A stretch of DNA of 64,000 bases. Origin: Escherichia coli. Its GTDB lineage: Bacteria > Pseudomonadota > Gammaproteobacteria > Enterobacterales > Enterobacteriaceae. The position numbers and the translations under genes are program-made. Each line of letters starts with the position of its first letter. The first letter of the stretch is position 1. The notes below the pieces were generated by a model that saw only the letters and a program-made list of their open reading frames with translations, was not told the DNA's origin and ran no database searches. Below are positions 10,808 to 55,720 of this stretch, piece by piece. Location of the stretch: assembly GCF_009931435.1 (NCBI RefSeq), contig NZ_CP043414.1; one strand, written 5' to 3'.

Positions 10808-11433
<626 letters not shown>

Positions 11434-19238: not shown

Positions 19239-20087
19239 ATGAAACTCTTTGCCCAGGGCACTTCACTGGACCTTAGCCATCCTCACGTAATGGGGATCCT
19301 CAACGTTACGCCTGATTCCTTTTCGGATGGCGGCACGCATAACTCGCTGATAGATGCGGTGAAACATGCGAATCTGATGATCAACGCTGGTGCGACGATC
19401 ATTGACGTTGGTGGCGAGTCCACGCGCCCAGGGGCGGCGGAAGTTAGCGTTGAAGAAGAGTTGCAGCGTGTTATTCCTGTGGTTGAGGCAATTGCTCAAC
19501 GCTTCGAAGTCTGGATCTCAGTAGATACTTCCAAACCAGAAGTCATACGTGAGTCAGCGAAAGTTGGTGCTCACATTATTAACGATATTCGCTCTCTTTC
19601 CGAACCTGGCGCTCTGGAAGCTGCTGCAGAAACCGGTTTGCCAGTTTGCCTGATGCATATGCAGGGAAATCCAAAAACCATGCAGGAAGCCCCGAAGTAT
19701 GACGATGTCTTTGCGGAAGTGAATCGCTACTTTATTGAGCAGATAGCTCGTTGTGAGCAGGCGGGTATCGCAAAAGAGAAATTGTTGCTCGACCCCGGAT
19801 TCGGTTTCGGTAAAAATCTCTCCCATAACTATTCATTACTGGCGCGCCTGGCTGAATTTCACCATTTCAACCTGCCGCTGTTGGTGGGTATGTCACGAAA
19901 ATCGATGATTGGGCAATTGCTGAACGTGGGGCCGTCCGAGCGCCTGAGCGGTAGTTTGGCCTGTGCGGTCATTGCCGCAATGCAAGGTGCGCACATCATT
20001 CGTGTTCATGACGTCAAAGAAACCGTAGAAGCGATGCGGGTGGTGGAAGCCACTCTGTCTGCAAAGGAAAACAAACGCTATGAGTAA
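19239..20087 (+). CDS. folP: dihydropteroate synthase FolP
   Basis: ORF 19173..20087 trimmed to [32 protein letters not shown]; 282 aa; upstream ORF portion covers the ftsH terminator. Confidence 0.93.
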
Positions 20088-21417
20088 TCGTAAATATTTC
20101 GGTACCGATGGGATTCGTGGTCGTGTAGGGGATGCGCCGATCACCCCTGATTTTGTACTTAAGTTGGGTTGGGCCGCCGGTAAAGTGCTGGCGCGCCACG
20201 GCTCGCGTAAGATCATTATTGGTAAAGACACGCGTATTTCTGGCTATATGCTGGAGTCAGCACTGGAAGCGGGTCTGGCGGCTGCGGGCCTTTCCGCACT
20301 CTTTACAGGCCCGATGCCTACACCTGCCGTGGCTTATCTGACGCGTACCTTCCGCGCAGAGGCCGGGATTGTAATTTCTGCATCGCATAACCCATTCTAC
20401 GATAACGGCATTAAATTCTTTTCTATTGACGGTACTAAGCTGCCGGATGCAGTTGAAGAAGCCATCGAAGCGGAAATGGAAAAAGAGATCAGCTGTGTTG
20501 ATTCGGCAGAACTGGGTAAAGCCAGCCGTATCGTTGATGCTGCGGGTCGCTATATCGAGTTTTGCAAAGCCACGTTCCCGAACGAACTTAGCCTCAGTGA
20601 ACTGAAGATTGTGGTGGATTGTGCAAACGGCGCGACTTATCACATCGCGCCGAACGTGCTGCGTGAACTGGGGGCGAACGTTATCGCTATCGGTTGTGAG
20701 CCGAACGGCGTAAACATCAATGCCGAAGTGGGGGCAACAGATGTTCGTGCGTTACAGGCGCGCGTACTGGCTGAAAAAGCAGATCTTGGGATCGCCTTTG
20801 ACGGTGACGGCGACCGCGTGATTATGGTTGACCATGAAGGCAATAAAGTCGATGGCGACCAGATTATGTATATCATCGCGCGCGAAGGTCTGCGTCAGGG
20901 CCAACTGCGTGGTGGCGCGGTGGGTACATTGATGAGCAACATGGGGCTGGAACTCGCCCTGAAACAGCTAGGAATTCCGTTTGCTCGTGCGAAAGTGGGT
21001 GATCGCTACGTACTGGAAAAAATGCAGGAGAAAGGCTGGCGTATCGGTGCAGAGAATTCTGGTCATGTGATCCTGCTGGATAAAACCACAACCGGTGACG
21101 GCATCGTTGCTGGTTTGCAGGTGCTGGCGGCGATGGCGCGTAACCATATGAGCCTGCACGATCTTTGCAGCGGCATGAAAATGTTCCCGCAGATTCTGGT
21201 TAACGTGCGTTACACCGCAGGTAGCGGCGATCCGCTGGAGCATGAATCAGTCAAAGCTGTAACCGCAGAAGTTGAAGCGGCGCTGGGTAGCCGTGGACGT
21301 GTGCTGTTGCGTAAATCCGGCACCGAACCGTTAATTCGCGTGATGGTAGAAGGCGAAGACGAAGCGCAGGTGACTGAATTTGCACACCGCATCGCCGATG
21401 CAGTAAAAGCCGTTTAA
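20080..21417 (+). CDS. glmM: phosphoglucosamine mutase GlmM
   Basis: 445 aa; active-site SASHNP; 8-nt overlap with folP. Confidence 0.96.
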
Positions 21418-21644: not shown

Positions 21645-21977
21645 ATGTACGAAGCTCTTTTAGTAGTTTTCCTTATTGTGGCAATTGGCCTTGTTGGTCT
21701 GATCATGCTGCAGCAAGGTAAAGGCGCTGATATGGGAGCCTCCTTCGGAGCAGGCGCTTCCGCTACGCTGTTTGGTTCAAGTGGTTCTGGTAACTTCATG
21801 ACCCGCATGACGGCGCTGCTGGCAACGTTATTCTTCATCATCAGTCTGGTGCTGGGTAACATCAATAGCAACAAAACCAATAAAGGTAGTGAATGGGAAA
21901 ACCTGAGTGCACCGGCCAAAACCGAACAAACTCAGCCAGCTGCTCCGGCTAAGCCGACCAGCGATATCCCGAACTAA
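21645..21977 (+). CDS. secG: preprotein translocase subunit SecG
   Basis: ORF 21597..21977 trimmed to MYEALLVVFLIVAIGLVGLIMLQQGKGADMG; 110 aa. Confidence 0.93.
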   Translation: MYEALLVVFLIVAIGLVGLIMLQQGKGADMGASFGAGASATLFGSSGSGNFMTRMTALLATLFFIISLVLGNINSNKTNKGSEWENLSAPAKTEQTQPAAPAKPTSDIPN

Positions 21978-21990
21978 AAGTAGTATCCGT

Positions 21991-22077
21991 GCCGAGGTGG
22001 TGGAATTGGTAGACACGCTACCTTGAGGTGGTAGTGCCCAATAGGGCTTACGGGTTCAAGTCCCGTCCTCGGTACCA
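21991..22077 (+). tRNA. leuU: tRNA-Leu (anticodon GAG)
   Basis: GCCGAGGTGGTGGAATTGGTAGACACGCTACCTTGAGGTGGTAGTGCCCAATAGGGCTTACGGGTTCAAGTCCCGTCCTCGGTACCA; long variable arm; 14 nt after secG stop. Confidence 0.95.
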
Positions 22078-22085
22078 AATTCCAG

Positions 22086-22119
22086 AAAAGAGACGCTGAA
22101 AAGCGTCTTTTTTCGTTTT
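22086..22119 (+). terminator. intrinsic terminator after secG-leuU
   Basis: AGAGACGCTGAAAAGCGTCTTTTTTCGTTTT. Confidence 0.85.
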
Positions 22120-22533
22120 GGTCCTGGTCTGAGGAATGGTTGTCAGATATCTGTATCTCGTCCAGTTGCTTTACTCGTAGCTGGTACTTTGAAACGATGG
22201 TGCCGGTACGCCTTAGTTATAAACTTTTCCCTACTGCTGACATAATTGGCACTTTATTGTGTCAACTCCAGTTCCGGTACGAATACGGATATGTTTACTT
22301 CTCGATAAACCATCCTGCTCCTGTCAGTATAACTACTGATGGCTACGTTCTGCGTAATGTTTAGAGACGCATTGATAATGTTATTTAATTACTGAGAACA
22401 ATGGCCGCATCATTTAAAAAGAAAAAACTAACAGTGTTTCGGTCTGATATGGATCAGCATTGAAAAACATGTCTGATATAAAATTGAACATTGTTGATAA
22501 TTGTTTATATTGGTTGTGAACTTGGATTTCTGG

Positions 22534-24159
22534 ATGACAGTATTCAACAAATTTGTTAGAAGTTTTAAATCTCATTGGTTGTTGTATCTTTGTGTTATTG
22601 TTTTTGGTATTACGAACTTAGTCGCCTCTTCCGGAGCGCATATGGTTCAGCGATTGCTGTTCTTCGTTCTGACCATCCTGGTTGTTAAACGTATATCATC
22701 CCTTCCGCTTCGCCTGCTTGTTGCCGCACCATTTGTGTTACTGACAGCGGCAGACATGAGTATTAGCCTCTATTCATGGTGTACCTTTGGTACAACTTTC
22801 AATGATGGATTTGCGATTAGTGTGCTGCAGAGTGATCCGGATGAAGTTGTCAAAATGCTGGGGATGTATATCCCTTATCTATGTGCTTTTGCCTTTTTAT
22901 CCCTTCTTTTTTTGGCAGTAATAATAAAATATGATGTTTCCTTGCCGACGAAAAAAGTGACAGGAATATTATTGCTGATTGTCATTTCGGGCAGTTTATT
23001 TTCCGCTTGTCAATTTGCTTATAAAGATGCAAAAAATAAAAAAGCGTTCAGTCCATATATACTAGCGTCGCGATTTGCTACCTATACACCGTTTTTCAAT
23101 CTCAATTATTTTGCTTTAGCAGCGAAAGAGCATCAAAGATTACTCTCAATTGCAAACACGGTGCCGTATTTTCAATTATCAGTCAGGGATACAGGTATTG
23201 ATACCTACGTGTTGATTGTGGGGGAGTCTGTACGTGTCGACAATATGTCTTTGTATGGATATACACGCTCTACGACACCGCAAGTCGAAGCACAAAGAAA
23301 ACAGATCAAACTGTTTAATCAAGCAATAAGCGGTGCACCTTACACTGCGCTGTCGGTTCCCCTTTCTTTAACTGCTGATTCTGTTTTGAGTCATGACATT
23401 CATAATTACCCGGACAACATTATTAATATGGCTAATCAAGCAGGATTTCAGACTTTCTGGCTAAGCTCGCAATCCGCTTTTCGGCAGAATGGTACAGCAG
23501 TTACCAGTATCGCCATGCGCGCCATGGAAACAGTCTATGTCAGAGGATTTGATGAATTGTTGTTGCCGCATTTATCGCAAGCGTTACAGCAAAAGACGCA
23601 GCAAAAGAAACTGATTGTTCTTCATTTAAATGGAAGCCATGAACCGGCTTGTAGCGCCTATCCGCAATCCAGCGCCGTGTTTCAACCACAGGACGATCAG
23701 GATGCCTGCTATGACAACTCCATTCATTACACAGATAGTTTGCTAGGTCAGGTTTTTGAATTATTAAAAGATCGCCGAGCCTCGGTCATGTATTTTGCCG
23801 ACCATGGCCTGGAACGCGACCCGACGAAGAAGAACATTTATTTTCATGGAGGCAGGGAGGCCAGCCAGCAGGCATATCATGTTCCGATGTTTATCTGGTA
23901 TAGCCCCGTTCTTGGGGATGGCGTGGATCGCACAACGGAAAACGATATCTTTTCCACTGCTTACAATAATTACCTTATTAATGCGTGGATGGGGGTAACA
24001 AAGCCGGAACAGCCGCAAACGCTGGAGGAAGTGATTGCACACTATAAAGGAGATTCACGGGTTGTAGATGCAAACCATGATGTTTTCGATTTTGTGATGC
24101 TAAGAAAGGAGTTTACTGAGGATAAGCAAGGTAACCCCACCCCTGAAGGGCAGGGTTGA
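22534..24159 (+). CDS. yhbX: EptA/OpgE-family inner-membrane phosphoethanolamine-transferase-like protein YhbX
   Basis: ORF 22501..24159 trimmed to MTVFNKFVRSFKSHWLLYL; 541 aa; N-terminal TM helices plus sulfatase-like domain; AT-rich. Confidence 0.85.
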   Translation: MTVFNKFVRSFKSHWLLYLCVIVFGITNLVASSGAHMVQRLLFFVLTILVVKRISSLPLRLLVAAPFVLLTAADMSISLYSWCTFGTTFNDGFAISVLQSDPDEVVKMLGMYIPYLCAFAFLSLLFLAVIIKYDVSLPTKKVTGILLLIVISGSLFSACQFAYKDAKNKKAFSPYILASRFATYTPFFNLNYFALAAKEHQRLLSIANTVPYFQLSVRDTGIDTYVLIVGESVRVDNMSLYGYTRSTTPQVEAQRKQIKLFNQAISGAPYTALSVPLSLTADSVLSHDIHNYPDNIINMANQAGFQTFWLSSQSAFRQNGTAVTSIAMRAMETVYVRGFDELLLPHLSQALQQKTQQKKLIVLHLNGSHEPACSAYPQSSAVFQPQDDQDACYDNSIHYTDSLLGQVFELLKDRRASVMYFADHGLERDPTKKNIYFHGGREASQQAYHVPMFIWYSPVLGDGVDRTTENDIFSTAYNNYLINAWMGVTKPEQPQTLEEVIAHYKGDSRVVDANHDVFDFVMLRKEFTEDKQGNPTPEGQG

Positions 24160-24166
24160 TGTCGAA

Positions 24167-25525
<1,359 letters not shown>

Positions 25526-25934: not shown

Positions 25935-26056
25935 CTTTCCCTTAGAGTCCTTTTTCAAATATACTGTGAAGACTTCGGCCTTCGTAGTGGGATTTGAAAA
26001 AATCCTTCTGGAAAGTGCTCCAGACCGCAGTTGCGGTTATAGGGTTCAGTTATATA

Positions 26057-26087
26057 AAGCCCCGATTTATCGGGGTTTTTTGTTATC
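26057..26087 (+). terminator. intrinsic terminator/attenuator between metY and rimP
   Basis: AAAGCCCCGATTTATCGGGGTTTTTTGTT. Confidence 0.75.
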
Positions 26088-26140
26088 TGACTACAGAATA
26101 ACTGGGCTTTAGGCCCTTTTTTTATGTCTTGGGGGTGGGC

Positions 26141-51764: not shown

Positions 51765-51813
51765 TTACAGGCGTCGCAGCAAGAATAGAGCTGCAACGCC
51801 TACACCGGGCGAT

Positions 51814-52581
51814 TTAACGACGACACATCTCATCAATCATGCATGTGAAATAGTTATGCAGCCATAAAAACGAAGCCGGGATAGCGGTAGAGACTTTAGC
51901 CGTGAGAAAACGTTCTGTCGCATCCTGCTTTCCTTCGCCAGTCACCAGTAGCAAAACTTCGCGGGTATTGAGAATATCCTTCAGGCCTAAGGTGATCCCA
52001 CGAGTCACGGGGCGACCCGCGGTTTTTAACATCTCATGTTGCTGTGTTCTGGCATCAAGTTGACTGATATGGCAGGCCGGTTGCAGGCTTTCTCCCGGTT
52101 CGTTCAGCCCAAGATGACCGTTTTTCCCCAATCCGAGAACGCATAAATCCAGACCGCCTTTGCGCGCAATCAGGTTCGTTACCCGTTCGCACTCTGTCTC
52201 ATTTATCTCTTCGGAGCGAAAGCTGATGAGCTGGTCTTCACGTAGCCCCAGCGGCTGCACGATATGCTGTTGAAGGAAAGTTTCGCAGGTGCCAGGCATC
52301 GTTAATGGCAGATCCACCCATTCGTCGAGCTTCACGAAGGTGAGCTGGCTGACATCAACCTGCTGCTGGTGGATTTTTTCTACCAGATAATGATACGTCA
52401 GTAATGGCGTGGCTCCGGTCGCCAGGCAAATCACGGCATCCGGTTTGCTACGGATCACGGCCAATAAATATTCGCTGGCACGTTCACTTAACGCCGTATA
52501 GTTTTCAACTTGTTGAAGGGTTTGCACAGGATGAAATTCCTTTAGTAAAGAGGCACCACCAGACGCAGTGCCTCGTTCCAT
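51814..52581 (-). CDS. agaI: NagB-like galactosamine-6-phosphate deaminase/isomerase AgaI
   Basis: 255 aa ORF with NagB/Pgl-type sequence; last gene of aga cluster; exact start uncertain. Confidence 0.85.
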   Translation of the reverse strand: MERGTASGGASLLKEFHPVQTLQQVENYTALSERASEYLLAVIRSKPDAVICLATGATPLLTYHYLVEKIHQQQVDVSQLTFVKLDEWVDLPLTMPGTCETFLQQHIVQPLGLREDQLISFRSEEINETECERVTNLIARKGGLDLCVLGLGKNGHLGLNEPGESLQPACHISQLDARTQQHEMLKTAGRPVTRGITLGLKDILNTREVLLLVTGEGKQDATERFLTAKVSTAIPASFLWLHNYFTCMIDEMCRR

Positions 52582-53373
52582 TTACAAAATGCCGAATGCG
52601 GAACAAACAATAGAGAGCACAAAAGTCACGCCGATTAACAGCACCGGATGCGCTTTTTTCACCCGCAGGAAGTAATACATCAGCAGGGTATAGGCCATCG
52701 GTAAAATGTTCGGGAAGACTTTATCGAAGAAATCCTGCTGCAGGGCGACGCTGTGGGTACTGTCGATCGCAAACGATGTCACCACGTTAATATGCACATA
52801 CGAAGCGATCAGCCCGCCGATTACCGTGATCCCGAGGATGGTTGCCGAACGAGCAATCATCTGCGAGTTCTCTCGCACTTTATCGATCGCCTTCACGCCG
52901 ACTGAATAACCGACGTGGGTCCAGCCGACGCGCAGGAAGAAGATAAGCAGGTAAACGGCGAAAAATAGAATCGGCCCCAGCAAGTTTCCCTGGCTGGCAA
53001 ATGATGAGCAAATTCCCGCCATAATCGGCAATAAGGTAAACCAGAAAATCGCATCGCCAATCCCGGCGATTGGGCCAAACAGTGCCACTTTGAGGCCTTT
53101 AATGGTGTCGCGGTTTTCTCCTTTTTCTTCCATCGAAATTAATAACCCCATCAGGAATCCGACCAGATTCGGGTGGGTATTAATAAATTCGAGGTTATCT
53201 TTCATCGCCGCGCTTAGGCCCGGTTTGTCGTCCTTATAAATCTTTTTCAGGATCGGCAACATCGCCCAGGTAAAACCGCCCGCCTGCATCCTTTCGTAGT
53301 TAAAGCTTGCTTGTAGCAGTGACGAACGAAAGCCCAGACGGGTGATATCTTTTTTACTGATTTCAGATCCCAT
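52582..53373 (-). CDS. agaD: PTS galactosamine-specific EIID component AgaD
   Basis: ORF 52582..53520 trimmed to MGSEISKKDITRLGFRSSLLQASFNYERMQ with SD AGAGGA; 263 aa. Confidence 0.9.
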   Translation of the reverse strand: MGSEISKKDITRLGFRSSLLQASFNYERMQAGGFTWAMLPILKKIYKDDKPGLSAAMKDNLEFINTHPNLVGFLMGLLISMEEKGENRDTIKGLKVALFGPIAGIGDAIFWFTLLPIMAGICSSFASQGNLLGPILFFAVYLLIFFLRVGWTHVGYSVGVKAIDKVRENSQMIARSATILGITVIGGLIASYVHINVVTSFAIDSTHSVALQQDFFDKVFPNILPMAYTLLMYYFLRVKKAHPVLLIGVTFVLSIVCSAFGIL

Positions 53374-54166
53374 TGCTGTAGTCCTCTTCTTCATTTTTAC
53401 TGGCAACGGGCTGCGGTTGCGCTTGCTGCCGGGATTTCGCATTGAAAAACTCATACACCGCAAAGCCTGCGCCCAGTACGGCAACCGGCAACAGGTTGCT
53501 GACCTGGATGTAGCAAACAAACAGGAAACCGGCGATCAGGTAAGGGATATATTGCGCTTTGAACATTACGCGCAGCAGCAAGCCAAAACCAACGGCAGGC
53601 AGAATACCGCCAGCCACTTCAAAGCCGTGGGTCAGCCAGGCGGGCATCGCTTTCACCAGCGCCTGCATCGCCCCTTGCGCCAGGTAAGTACAGAGGAAAG
53701 CAATCACCGCATACGCTGAAGCGACGATGAGCATCGTTGTCCAGTTAAGTCGGGAAAACGCTGCTGTATCCGCCTCTTTCGCACAATTATCAGCTTTGGT
53801 CATGAATAATGAGAAAGCGGAATAGAAGAACAGAATGACGTACTGCATTAACAAACTAAACGGCAGACCAAGACCAATTGCCGTTTTGGCATCGACGCCC
53901 GTAGACCATGCAATGACGGTGGTCATCAGACCCGCCATAATTGGGTTGGGCGGCTGAACACCACCTGCGGGGGTTAATCCGGCGAAAGCCAGTTCTGTCA
54001 GGCCACCGGTAATTAAGCCAATCTGAATATCACCGAGAATAGCACCTGTAAGGGTACAAACGATTATCGGGCGGAATAAAAATAAGGCTTCCAGCCAAAA
54101 ATCAATCCCCAGAACGAAAACTAACGCCGCCAGGGATAATCCCTGAATTAGGGTTATTTCATGCAT
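53363..54166 (-). CDS. agaC: PTS galactosamine-specific EIIC component AgaC
   Basis: 267 aa MHEITLIQGLSLAALVFVLGIDFW. Confidence 0.92.
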   Translation of the reverse strand: MHEITLIQGLSLAALVFVLGIDFWLEALFLFRPIIVCTLTGAILGDIQIGLITGGLTELAFAGLTPAGGVQPPNPIMAGLMTTVIAWSTGVDAKTAIGLGLPFSLLMQYVILFFYSAFSLFMTKADNCAKEADTAAFSRLNWTTMLIVASAYAVIAFLCTYLAQGAMQALVKAMPAWLTHGFEVAGGILPAVGFGLLLRVMFKAQYIPYLIAGFLFVCYIQVSNLLPVAVLGAGFAVYEFFNAKSRQQAQPQPVASKNEEEDYSNGI

Positions 54167-54204
54167 TTTTATTACCTCAAACCAGTATTAAGGCGATTTT
54201 AAAT

Positions 54205-54681
54205 TTAGTCAGGGATTTGTTCTTTTTGATCGCCGGGGACGTCCTGAATAAAAATATTCACACCGCGTTGTTTAATAAAGCGTAAGTCCGCGAGATCTTG
54301 ATCGTCGATATAAACTTTACTGCTGATTTGCTTTTTACCTTCCGAGAAATGCATATTGCCGACGTTGACATCTTTCAGGTCAATGCCACCTTCTATCAAT
54401 TTACGTACCGTTTGCGGCGTACGGCAAATCAAGAAGATTTTCTGATGCGGTGCAGCTTTGCCGATGACGTTAATGGTTTTTTCGATAGTAAAGAAACGAA
54501 TGCCAAAGCCGTAGGTTTCCGCGGTAATACCCATTAATTTTTGTTGAATATCATCGTTAGCGACAACATCATCCACGACTACCAGCAGATTTGCACCGAT
54601 GGTAGATGTCCAGGTCACACCAACCTGACCGTGAACCAGACGGTTATCAATACGGGTTAAGAGAATATTTGGACTGCTCAT
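54205..54681 (-). CDS. agaB: PTS galactosamine-specific EIIB component AgaB
   Basis: 158 aa MSSPNILLTRIDNRLVHGQVGVTW. Confidence 0.92.
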   Translation of the reverse strand: MSSPNILLTRIDNRLVHGQVGVTWTSTIGANLLVVVDDVVANDDIQQKLMGITAETYGFGIRFFTIEKTINVIGKAAPHQKIFLICRTPQTVRKLIEGGIDLKDVNVGNMHFSEGKKQISSKVYIDDQDLADLRFIKQRGVNIFIQDVPGDQKEQIPD

Positions 54682-54847
54682 TGTGTAATCCTCACCATAA
54701 AGTTGAATAATATAATTTTTTTAAATATATTATTGTTGCGATATTTTACTGATGTATTTATTAAGGTTTAGTTATCTCCTTTACCATTAAGGCACTCCCC
54801 GATATTAATCGGGAAGTACATTGGGATAAATCATAAAAAACTAATGA

Positions 54848-55720
<873 letters not shown>

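Follow-up and report, generated by a model that had tools for sequence, protein, structure and literature searches.

Gene order and base composition at the leuU-argG locus

The window, the whole 64-kb stretch of Escherichia coli chromosome that was analysed, carries the genes secG, leuU and yhbX, followed by the convergent argG. The features of the locus are listed below with coordinates, strand and the basis of each call.

21991–22077, plus strand: leuU, tRNA-Leu with anticodon GAG (ARAGORN; Rfam tRNA), outside the putatively foreign cassette
22085–22114, scoring on both strands: intrinsic terminator hairpin of leuU (terminator scan)
22120–24165, plus strand: replaceable AT-rich cassette comprising leader and yhbX, differing between two E. 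coli alleles
22120–22533, plus strand: AT-rich non-coding leader/promoter region of yhbX (GC ~0.38), without RefSeq gene
22473–22511, plus strand: two overlapping candidate sigma-70-like promoters (consensus scan, 9/12 matches each)
22534–24159, plus strand: yhbX coding sequence, 541 aa, putative inner-membrane phosphoethanolamine (PEtN) transferase (RefSeq annotation of the identical sequence)
22534–23133, plus strand: N-terminal membrane domain, approximately residues 1–200 (five hydrophobic segments)
23203–23931, plus strand: sulfatase-fold catalytic domain (Pfam Sulfatase, EptA alignment)
24167–25510, minus strand: argG, convergent right neighbour (annotation)

The leuU gene is 100% identical to the K-12 copy and is the conserved left neighbour of the cassette, while its terminator hairpin, which was also found in Citrobacter, Enterobacter and Phytobacter, is the left edge of the ancestral DNA. 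On the other side, the stop codons of argG and yhbX are 7 bp apart. The segment singled out by the original prediction, which had been made from the bare sequence, ended at 24159, and this position is the yhbX stop codon.

The prediction that the DNA following leuU is unusually AT-rich was confirmed. The GC content of 22078–24159 is 0.418, compared with a mean of 0.517 (sd 0.025) for the 64-kb window, and the 2082-bp windows with the lowest GC content of the entire 64 kb begin at 22051 and 22101, making this its lowest 2-kb stretch. In a 400-bp sliding profile, GC values of 0.35–0.44 were found over 22000–23600 and values of about 0.50–0.56 in most flanking windows. The proposed check by sliding-window GC and codon usage likewise separated yhbX from its neighbours. 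The other 57 genes of the window average 0.524 in GC content (sd 0.025), and yhbX, at 0.428 (z = -3.8), is the lowest of all 58; its GC3 of 0.415 (z = -2.6) and its CAI of 0.220, calculated with Sharp-Li weights, are likewise the lowest among these genes, and its rare-codon fraction of 0.085 has rank 57 of 58. The N-terminal third is the most AT-rich part of the gene (GC 0.39 in the first 540 nt). Since the membrane proteins encoded by mlaE, yhbE, mtr and yrbG in the same window have GC3 values of 0.56–0.64, the compositional bias of yhbX is not simply a membrane-protein effect. In GC, GC3 and CAI, yhbX shows the host-atypical base composition and codon usage of a horizontally acquired islet.

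About 420 bp of AT-rich non-coding DNA had been expected in front of yhbX; the annotated ATG (22534) lies 456 bp beyond the end of leuU and 414 bp past the terminator, and the GC content of the stretch is 0.38. A convincing open reading frame is indeed missing from this leader. Its only ORF (22140–22364, 74 aa, TTG start) is unannotated in RefSeq, and because its substitutions over 10 alleles mostly change the amino acid (approximately 9 to 3 by manual count), its pattern is that of non-coding DNA. No Rfam family was found in the 414–456-bp stretch between leuU and yhbX. The two candidate promoters are located 23–60 bp upstream of the yhbX ATG, and the number of promoter matches in the consensus scan across the leader is not above the shuffled expectation. 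A genomic SELEX peak of a minor-sigma holoenzyme has been reported for the yhbX-leuU spacer (PMC5493296).

YhbX as a putative phosphoethanolamine transferase

The assignment of YhbX as an EptA-family, sulfatase-like membrane protein held up on comparison with domain and structure libraries. The Pfam Sulfatase model (PF00884) matches residues 224–466 with E = 3.6e-56 and a score of 191 bits (cut-off 25), and the best PDB match is the EptC catalytic domain 5zzu (E = 8e-24, residues 208–460). Full-length Neisseria EptA (5fgn) was matched with E = 2e-23, its residues 56–489 aligning with YhbX 41–460. In this alignment, E231, T271, D423 and H424 of YhbX correspond to E240, T280, D452 and H453 of NmEptA, residues that in the EptA structure are the catalytic threonine nucleophile and the zinc-binding Glu, Asp and His, and H369 and H449 are likewise conserved. 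Hydropathy peaks (19-mers) are located at residues 16–34, 41–59, 61–79, 113–131 and 144–162. Thus, the sulfatase fold, a roughly five-helix membrane domain at the N-terminus and the aligned catalytic and metal-binding residues of the PEtN-transferase family are all present, and on the basis of these similarities YhbX is placed in the EptA/EptC/MCR phosphoethanolamine-transferase superfamily within the alkaline-phosphatase superfamily.

The individual member of the family that YhbX represents was searched for with more specific models. The N-terminus is not matched by Pfam EptA_B_N, and YhbX stays below the cut-offs of all NCBIfam models. Scores were 143 bits for the CptA model (cut-off 404), 123 and 94 bits for the EptA equivalogs (cut-offs 561 and 660), 105 bits for the EptB model (cut-off 493) and 30–72 bits for the MCR equivalogs (cut-offs 1075–1250). 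Hence, YhbX does not qualify as a specific orthologue of EptA, EptB or CptA/EptC, and with 143 bits against the cut-off of 404 it is not a CptA. None of the PADLOC defence-system models matched YhbX.

By homology, the sulfatase-fold domain of YhbX would face the periplasm and carry a metal site and a threonine nucleophile, and by analogy with EptA, EptB, EptC and OpgE the protein would most likely move phosphoethanolamine from phosphatidylethanolamine to an envelope glycan or lipid. YhbX has been described as having no established function (PMC4013655), and in the literature found to mention yhbX no demonstration of PEtN transfer and no defined acceptor was encountered. Among the PEtN-transferase paralogues of E. 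coli, YhbX is therefore one whose acceptor no report was found to name; its relatives include EptA and MCR. The MCR family is curated as conferring polymyxin resistance.

A plain search for relatives was filled by near-identical E. coli entries, and relatives were therefore sought in a library of clusters at 50% identity. The next clusters, from Buttiauxella, Pectobacterium sp., Mixta and Microvirgula, are 42–48% identical to YhbX, a Proteus homologue is 34% identical, and no more than 123 of the 50% clusters score at E <= 1e-30. YhbX thus forms a small subfamily of its own. For the Proteus protein PMI3040, identities of 33% to YhbX and 30% to YbiP have been published (PMC4013655). The homologues of Buttiauxella and Mixta lie elsewhere in the genome in unrelated gene neighbourhoods, and in the same orders in which YhbX homologues are only 42–48% identical, ArgG is 87–97% identical.

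Closer to YhbX is a paralogue with 65% protein and 68% DNA identity and a GC content of 0.44. Full-length copies occur in ~8% of E. coli genomes (455 of 5426), directly beside the integrase of a tRNA-Phe-associated P4-like island, and the paralogue also lies on the 62-kb plasmid pRHB40-C01_2. A patchy distribution over scattered genera and homologues on mobile elements, further marks of horizontally acquired islets, are hence both seen for yhbX.

Alleles, distribution and origin of the yhbX cassette

The boundaries of the cassette were defined by comparison with strain OkiPb01711, which carries an alternative allele: homology with the window ends at 22119 and restarts at 24166. The leader consequently belongs to the cassette and is not ancestral spacer. 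Among 5426 complete E. coli genomes the yhbX cassette is present in 5178 and of full length in 5166 (~95%), while in 237 the two junctions enclose an unrelated AT-rich cassette, which holds an orphan HTH protein and keeps the argG terminator. IS1 insertions or fragments of the yhbX cassette were seen in some E. coli genomes. An unusually high divergence of yhbX among strains was considered and rejected, since the gene is 97.7% identical to that of K-12 and the flanking glmM (93.8%) and argG (96.4%) diverge more. The gene is under purifying selection: compared with K-12, 29 of its codons differ synonymously and 6 change the amino acid. Its wide occurrence and the divergence no greater than that of flanking genes agree with the predicted old age of the acquisition.

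The presence/absence survey across Enterobacteriaceae that had been called for was performed as an ArgG-anchored scan. A yhbX homologue was found, among the matches listed, in none of 25 Enterobacterales argG-leuU loci, a set that contains no E. albertii, E. fergusonii, Salmonella or Klebsiella. In nine Enterobacteriaceae genomes (Citrobacter youngae, C. werkmanii, Phytobacter, four Enterobacter, Pseudocitrobacter and one MAG) the slot measures 114–478 bp and holds no gene of at least 70 aa. Eight of these short slots were read; they contain the terminators of leuU and argG, in some cases palindromic repeats, and no gene remnant. The slot of Superficieibacter is 565 bp long with one ORF of 119 aa, and different cargo was found in Kluyvera, 'Escherichia sp. 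ESNIH1', Pluralibacter and RIT691. In the related Enterobacteriaceae genomes compared, the syntenic site thus lacks yhbX. In Salmonella LT2 and Citrobacter rodentium a YbiP counterpart is listed and a YhbX counterpart is not (PMC4013655). The time of acquisition is bracketed loosely by these slots, which omit E. albertii, E. fergusonii, other Escherichia species and Salmonella.

Several candidates for closer outgroups were discarded. The 'E. fergusonii' entry P0108 is E. coli-like, its contig matching 11.6 kb of the window at 99.4% identity. Fragment clusters at 68–88% identity, which might have represented yhbX of other Escherichia species, derive from poor assemblies; one of the fragments (L099) is uniformly 82% identical and almost gap-free, another (L100) is full of frameshifts. 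An exact SecG look-up for other Escherichia species returned E. coli-type contexts only.

Taken together, it is quite probable that 22120–24165 is a foreign yhbX cassette of about 2 kb, which encodes a putative PEtN transferase, is bound and repressed by H-NS and is probably subject to interference from argG. In this case an ancestor of E. coli and Shigella would have received yhbX together with its own AT-rich leader, placed between the terminator of leuU and the stop codon of argG, an event that would have removed the argG terminator. The horizontal acquisition proposed in the original prediction is supported by the atypical composition, the slot empty in nine relatives, the alternative allele, the distant homologues and the mobile paralogue. 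For the tRNA the outcome was divided: yhbX does adjoin leuU, but a mechanistic role of this adjacency is not supported, since the locus has neither an integrase nor a repeated tRNA 3′ end and its left junction lies past the leuU terminator.

Accordingly, it is unlikely that the cassette is the remnant of a P4-like island that was targeted to leuU by an integrase and later lost int and att, even though the 65% paralogue is cargo of such an island, adjoining its integrase at tRNA-Phe, and yhbX lies within 456 bp of a tRNA gene. Neither a mobility gene nor an att repeat nor an integrase remnant was found at the yhbX locus: no integrase is annotated, the tRNA-Phe island integrase used as tblastn query matched nothing in the spacer or elsewhere in the 64-kb window, and instead of attL/attR, which would directly repeat the 3′ end of the tRNA, only short repeats at chance level were detected. 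The left junction (22119/22120) is outside the tRNA, yhbX is oriented relative to the tRNA unlike the paralogue in the tRNA-Phe island, and the alternative cassette and the cargoes of other genera at the leuU-argG slot are without integrases as well.

Ancient vertical descent with repeated loss, the AT-richness reflecting low expression and membrane-protein composition, is very unlikely. The gene is near-universal in E. coli and under purifying selection, it is marked 'horizontally acquired: no' by Forrest et al. according to the published lists that they used (PMC8894471), and genes of low expression do show low CAI. These points are outweighed by the nine relatives with a short intact slot, eight of which when read keep both ancestral terminators without a remnant, by the lack of a yhbX homologue among the matches listed for the 25 Enterobacterales loci, by outside homologues that are far less conserved (42–48%) than ArgG (87–97%) and located elsewhere, by a GC3 of 0.415 against 0.56–0.64 for membrane proteins of the window, and by the paralogues carried on a plasmid and an island. 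Still less credible is a functionless, decaying passenger kept harmless by H-NS. The AT-rich, H-NS-bound locus, the IS1 insertions or fragments in some genomes and the lack of an established function (PMC4013655) would suit such a passenger, whereas the full-length gene in 5166 of 5426 genomes, the ratio of 29 synonymous to 6 non-synonymous differences, the conservation of all aligned catalytic residues and a moderate expression (logCPM 6.3, PMC8894471) speak against it. A yhbX knockout moreover raised reporter activity in one screen, an effect that the authors partly discounted as one of envelope or permeability (PMC4551910).

Transcriptional control and comparison with known systems

For the foreign cassette, the predicted silencing by H-NS was examined in published data. 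In the source data of Fig. 1b of Forrest et al. 2022, yhbX of K-12 is listed as 'H-NS bound', and in the Δhns mutant it has a logFC of 1.82 (P = 5.9e-7), with the same positive sign as hdeAB, bglG and gadE; argG is absent from the bound list and its logFC of 0.71 is not significant (PMC8894471). By these published data the gene is bound by H-NS and derepressed in its absence, but 'silenced' overstates the case for a gene that is moderately expressed and whose knockout affected a reporter in one screen (PMC4551910). With at most 2 mismatches to the H-NS high-affinity motif TCGATAAATT, a loose matching, 4 of the 81 matches in the window fall inside the cassette, which is no enrichment. H-NS would bind the AT-rich cassette and keep its transcription low, and this effect on yhbX is modest and could be partly indirect.

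Furthermore, argG has no terminator of its own in the yhbX allele: no terminator-like site was found on the minus strand from 24166 to 22108, and the ancestral argG terminator, kept in the alternative allele, Citrobacter and Enterobacter, is missing. For MG1655, 165 convergent excludons have been listed, and the pair argG-yhbX is among them (PMC12288877). Transcription from argG, unterminated before yhbX, would probably add convergent antisense interference. A more far-reaching and rather doubtful proposition is that leuU-argG is a recurrently reused site that works without integrase, and that ArgR-controlled argG antisense transcription couples arginine supply to the expression of the H-NS-coated envelope-modification gene yhbX. 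If true, the two E. coli alleles would differ in their transcriptional wiring, with the argG terminator lost in one and kept in the other. The two mutually exclusive alleles and the sister gene on island and plasmid in any case provide natural presence/absence material for finding the function.

The yhbX segment was read correctly, but features of its kind are familiar and unremarkable. It resembles a textbook small xenogeneic insertion with low GC content, H-NS binding and a syntenic site without yhbX in relatives; its confirmation mainly shows that the composition-based call was sound and leaves the current understanding unchallenged.

Among the known PEtN transferases, EptC/CptA, the heptose-phosphate PEtN transferase of E. 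coli and Salmonella, shares the membrane anchor and the sulfatase-fold domain with YhbX, provides its best PDB match and is the best-scoring model of a named enzyme, ranking behind a generic PEtN-lipid A transferase domain model. It differs in that YhbX is lineage-restricted and AT-rich and does not reach the CptA cut-off. With the lipid A PEtN transferases EptA/LptA and MCR-1 the alignment covers the membrane domain of YhbX and the catalytic residues, but YhbX scores far under the equivalog cut-offs, and a link of YhbX to polymyxin resistance is absent from the literature found. OpgE (YbiP), the periplasmic-glucan PEtN transferase paralogue of E. coli, is likened to YhbX in the original prediction and by database labels, some records naming YhbX relatives 'glucan phosphoethanolaminetransferase', and the Proteus protein PMI3040 resembles both.

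The island and plasmid paralogue has the motifs VGES/IGES, PYTAL, GSHEP and DHG and a similar GC content in common with YhbX. It differs by its position beside an integrase or on a plasmid and by a conserved hydrophobic ORF of 65 aa upstream, no remnant of which was found at the yhbX locus; the DNA upstream of the plasmid and island copies has no similarity to the yhbX leader or to other DNA of the window. Finally, the H-NS-bound xenogeneic islets of K-12 (bgl, yad/yag, gad-hde) are, like yhbX, AT-rich, listed as H-NS bound and derepressed in Δhns. Their derepression is stronger (logFC 3–6 versus 1.8 for yhbX), and the yhbX cassette is near-fixed in E. coli rather than strain-specific.

Composition and gene order of the leuU-argG interval

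The annotated gene order around yhbX is ftsH, folP, glmM, secG, leuU, yhbX, argG, tRNA-Met metY, rimP, nusA and infB. A rimP leader RNA (26023-26123; Rfam RF01770, 102 bits) was found upstream of rimP-nusA-infB, as expected there.

Features of the interval (window coordinates)
21645-21977, secG
21991-22077, leuU, tRNA-Leu(GAG)
22085-22114, leuU terminator hairpin, scoring on both strands
22534-24159, plus strand, yhbX, 541 aa
24167-25510, minus strand, argG

The original prediction that the segment 3′ of leuU is more AT-rich than its flanks was correct, and the difference is strong. In a 400-bp sliding profile the GC content was 0.35-0.44 over 22000-23600 compared with about 0.50-0.56 in most flanking windows. 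The GC content of 22078-24159 is 0.418, and the lowest-GC 2082-bp windows of the 64 kb (mean 0.517, sd 0.025) start at 22051 and 22101. Among 58 genes, yhbX is lowest in GC (0.428, z = -3.8), GC3 (0.415, z = -2.6) and codon adaptation index (CAI, 0.220), and second highest in rare-codon fraction. The CAI was calculated with Sharp-Li weights, and a synonymous-codon log-likelihood derived from the window's own genes agrees with it (yhbX rank 2 of 58). Since GC3 is 0.56-0.64 in other integral membrane proteins of the window, a membrane-protein effect was rejected as the cause of this bias. The GC content also increases along yhbX itself, its 5′ third being at 0.39 and its 3′ third at 0.47.

The 456-bp spacer between the leuU end and the yhbX start codon ATG (GC 0.38) contains no family detected by an Rfam scan and no gene annotated in RefSeq. 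Its sole ORF (22140-22364; 74 aa, TTG start) is uninterrupted in each of the 10 alleles compared, with about 9 amino-acid-changing and 3 silent differences by our own count. This pattern resembles that of non-coding DNA and the ORF is probably not a gene, in line with the earlier description of an AT-rich stretch without a convincing ORF.

Alleles of the slot in E. coli and other Enterobacteriaceae

Most of the query was missing from about 260 complete E. coli genomes. In one of these, strain OkiPb01711, homology ends at 22119, just past the leuU terminator, and restarts at 24166, at the argG stop codon, with an unrelated 1169-bp segment (GC 0.37) in between; the spacer and yhbX therefore make up one replaceable unit, 22120-24165. 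This cassette is present in 5178 of 5426 complete genomes (5166 at a coverage of at least 80%) and the alternative one in 237, which leaves about 11 with neither, provided that the two sets do not overlap.

Alternative cassette in place of window 22120-24165 (coordinates of the fetched comparison loci)
L002, 8219-9387
L102, 1533-2486

The alternative cassette encodes one acidic orphan protein of 317 aa, in which a weak N-terminal helix-turn-helix motif alone was detectable and for which no strong PADLOC match was obtained. It retains the ancestral argG terminator, which is absent from the yhbX allele. In the latter, the yhbX and argG stop codons are 7 bp apart, and a terminator scan found no minus-strand terminator-like site past argG before the leuU hairpin, 2 kb away. 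The missing terminator fits the listing of argG-yhbX among 165 convergent transcript overlaps in MG1655 (PMC12288877).

An ArgG-anchored scan with one genome per species covered at least 25 Enterobacterales loci, E. albertii, E. fergusonii and Salmonella not being among them. The argG-leuU-secG synteny is kept in 14 of the 25 loci listed. The slot measures 114-478 bp in Citrobacter youngae and werkmanii, Phytobacter, four Enterobacter, Pseudocitrobacter and one MAG, and 565 bp with one small ORF in Superficieibacter. Eight short slots were read and showed a conserved leuU terminator and, some 20 bp beyond the argG stop codon, a terminator for that gene; palindromic repeat units are present in some of them. 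Palindromic units resembling REP elements lie between the two terminators in empty slots of Citrobacter and Enterobacter asburiae (L006 7342-7533; L007; L015).

Filled slots of other Enterobacteriaceae (coordinates of the comparison loci)
L009, 7336-10127
L010, 7345-9083
L016, 7336-10920
L028, 7333-10634
L012, 7345-7909

Besides the small ORF of Superficieibacter, four different, unrelated cargoes were found, with identities judged from ORF translations: an AraC-type regulator and an AhpD-like protein in Kluyvera; an acid phosphatase, HxlR regulator, SDR and protein phosphatase in 'Escherichia sp. ESNIH1'; and OmpA-like and beta-barrel proteins in Pluralibacter and strain RIT691. No yhbX homologue occurs among the 25 loci listed, and no YhbX counterpart is given for Salmonella LT2 or Citrobacter rodentium in PMC4013655. 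From the short slots, the differing cargoes and the lack of yhbX in the listed loci, we infer that the slot was ancestrally empty and was filled independently several times.

Protein family, mobile paralogue and origin of the cassette

The assignment of YhbX as an EptA-family membrane sulfatase-like protein was borne out. A single Pfam Sulfatase domain spans residues 224-466 (E = 3.6e-56), five hydrophobic segments occupy residues 16-162, and the closest solved structures by sequence are EptC 5zzu (E = 8e-24) and full-length Neisseria EptA 5fgn (E = 2e-23). Alignment to the latter spans residues 41-460, membrane part included, and places E231, T271, D423 and H424 onto EptA E240, T280, D452 and H453; the further histidines H369 and H449 are also conserved in it. 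As scores fell far short of the NCBIfam equivalog and subfamily cut-offs (CptA 143 bits vs 404; EptA 123 vs 561; EptB 105 vs 493), YhbX is a superfamily member and no orthologue of any characterised enzyme. No function is given for it in the consulted papers that mention yhbX.

Only 123 of 1.84 billion cluster representatives match YhbX at E <= 1e-30. The nearest clusters beyond that of E. coli share 42-48% identity (Buttiauxella, a Pectobacterium, Mixta gaviniae, Microvirgula) and a Proteus relative 34%, while Enterobacterales ArgG proteins share 87-97% with the window's ArgG among the matches listed. The Buttiauxella and Mixta homologues sit in unrelated gene neighbourhoods. Within E. coli, a second yhbX-like paralogue (65% amino acid identity, GC 0.44) occurs at full length in 455 of the 5426 genomes.

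The yhbX-like paralogue (coordinates of the comparison loci)
L104, 8001-9674, adjoining the integrase of a P4-like island inserted at tRNA-Phe (11231-11306)
L103, 438-2099, on plasmid pRHB40-C01_2 (62 kb, CP057032.1)

Its low GC content and its presence on both an integrase island and a plasmid show that the family is natively low in GC and mobile. A conserved 65-aa hydrophobic ORF precedes the paralogue at both locations, and the island carries a gene for an H-NS-like protein as well; the genes beside the island are, judging by their Pfam domains, presumably the yqgA-speC neighbourhood.

The tRNA-Phe island raises the question of whether the yhbX cassette is itself an eroded integrase island. 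This origin is improbable: neither an integrase, an integrase remnant nor a tRNA 3′-end repeat was found at the locus, and the left cassette junction falls past the leuU terminator. The tRNA gene may instead mark a permissive terminator-to-terminator gap, not an attachment site.

The cassette is 97.1-97.7% identical to that of K-12 and thus no more diverged than its flanks (argG 96.4%, glmM 93.8%). Of the codon differences between yhbX and its K-12 allele, 29 are synonymous and 6 non-synonymous, and Shigella entries contain the gene as well; yhbX is therefore older than much of the E. coli diversification and evolves under purifying selection. The proposed old horizontal acquisition thus gains support from the atypical composition, the slot without yhbX in the listed relatives, the mobile paralogue and the sharing with Shigella. 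Despite its age, yhbX is far from ameliorated.

Separately, glmM (20080-21417) and argG (24167-25510) diverge from their K-12 alleles by 6.2% (81 synonymous codons, 1 non-synonymous) and 3.6% (all synonymous), respectively. Such divergence seems high for core genes within one species and suggests that the cassette lies in a divergent or recombinant segment. The chromosome of E. coli 2020CK-00188 is 100% identical to the window around yhbX (most other E. coli 97-98%). Its full identity is limited to most genes in about 16.4-42 kb, outside of which gene identities are mostly 96-99.9%, and the rsmI-kbaY interval (51765-54870) carries agaBCDI in the window and malX, a MalY-like gene, a LysR regulator and an MBL hydrolase in 2020CK-00188; the window is therefore mosaic relative to its best match.

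H-NS and the standing of the acquired-gene reading

H-NS binding and repression of yhbX are supported, on evidence taken entirely from the literature. The Fig. 1b source data of Forrest et al. 2022 (PMC8894471) have yhbX in the column of 'H-NS bound' genes, and Table S2 of that study gives it a logFC of 1.82 in the Δhns comparison (logCPM 6.3, P = 5.9e-7), on a sign scale on which hdeAB, bglG, gadE and csgD are strongly positive. The neighbouring argG (logFC 0.71, not significant) is outside the bound list. The same study labels yhbX as AT 57%, 'above average', and 'horizontally acquired: no' by the lists its authors used. The suggestion that yhbX is probably H-NS silenced thus holds for binding and repression; 'silenced' is too strong for a gene of moderate expression on which the effect is approximately 3.5-fold, assuming base-2 logs.

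Taken together, the compositional observation is confirmed and the acquired-gene interpretation supported. yhbX is a known gene with a known kind of signature.
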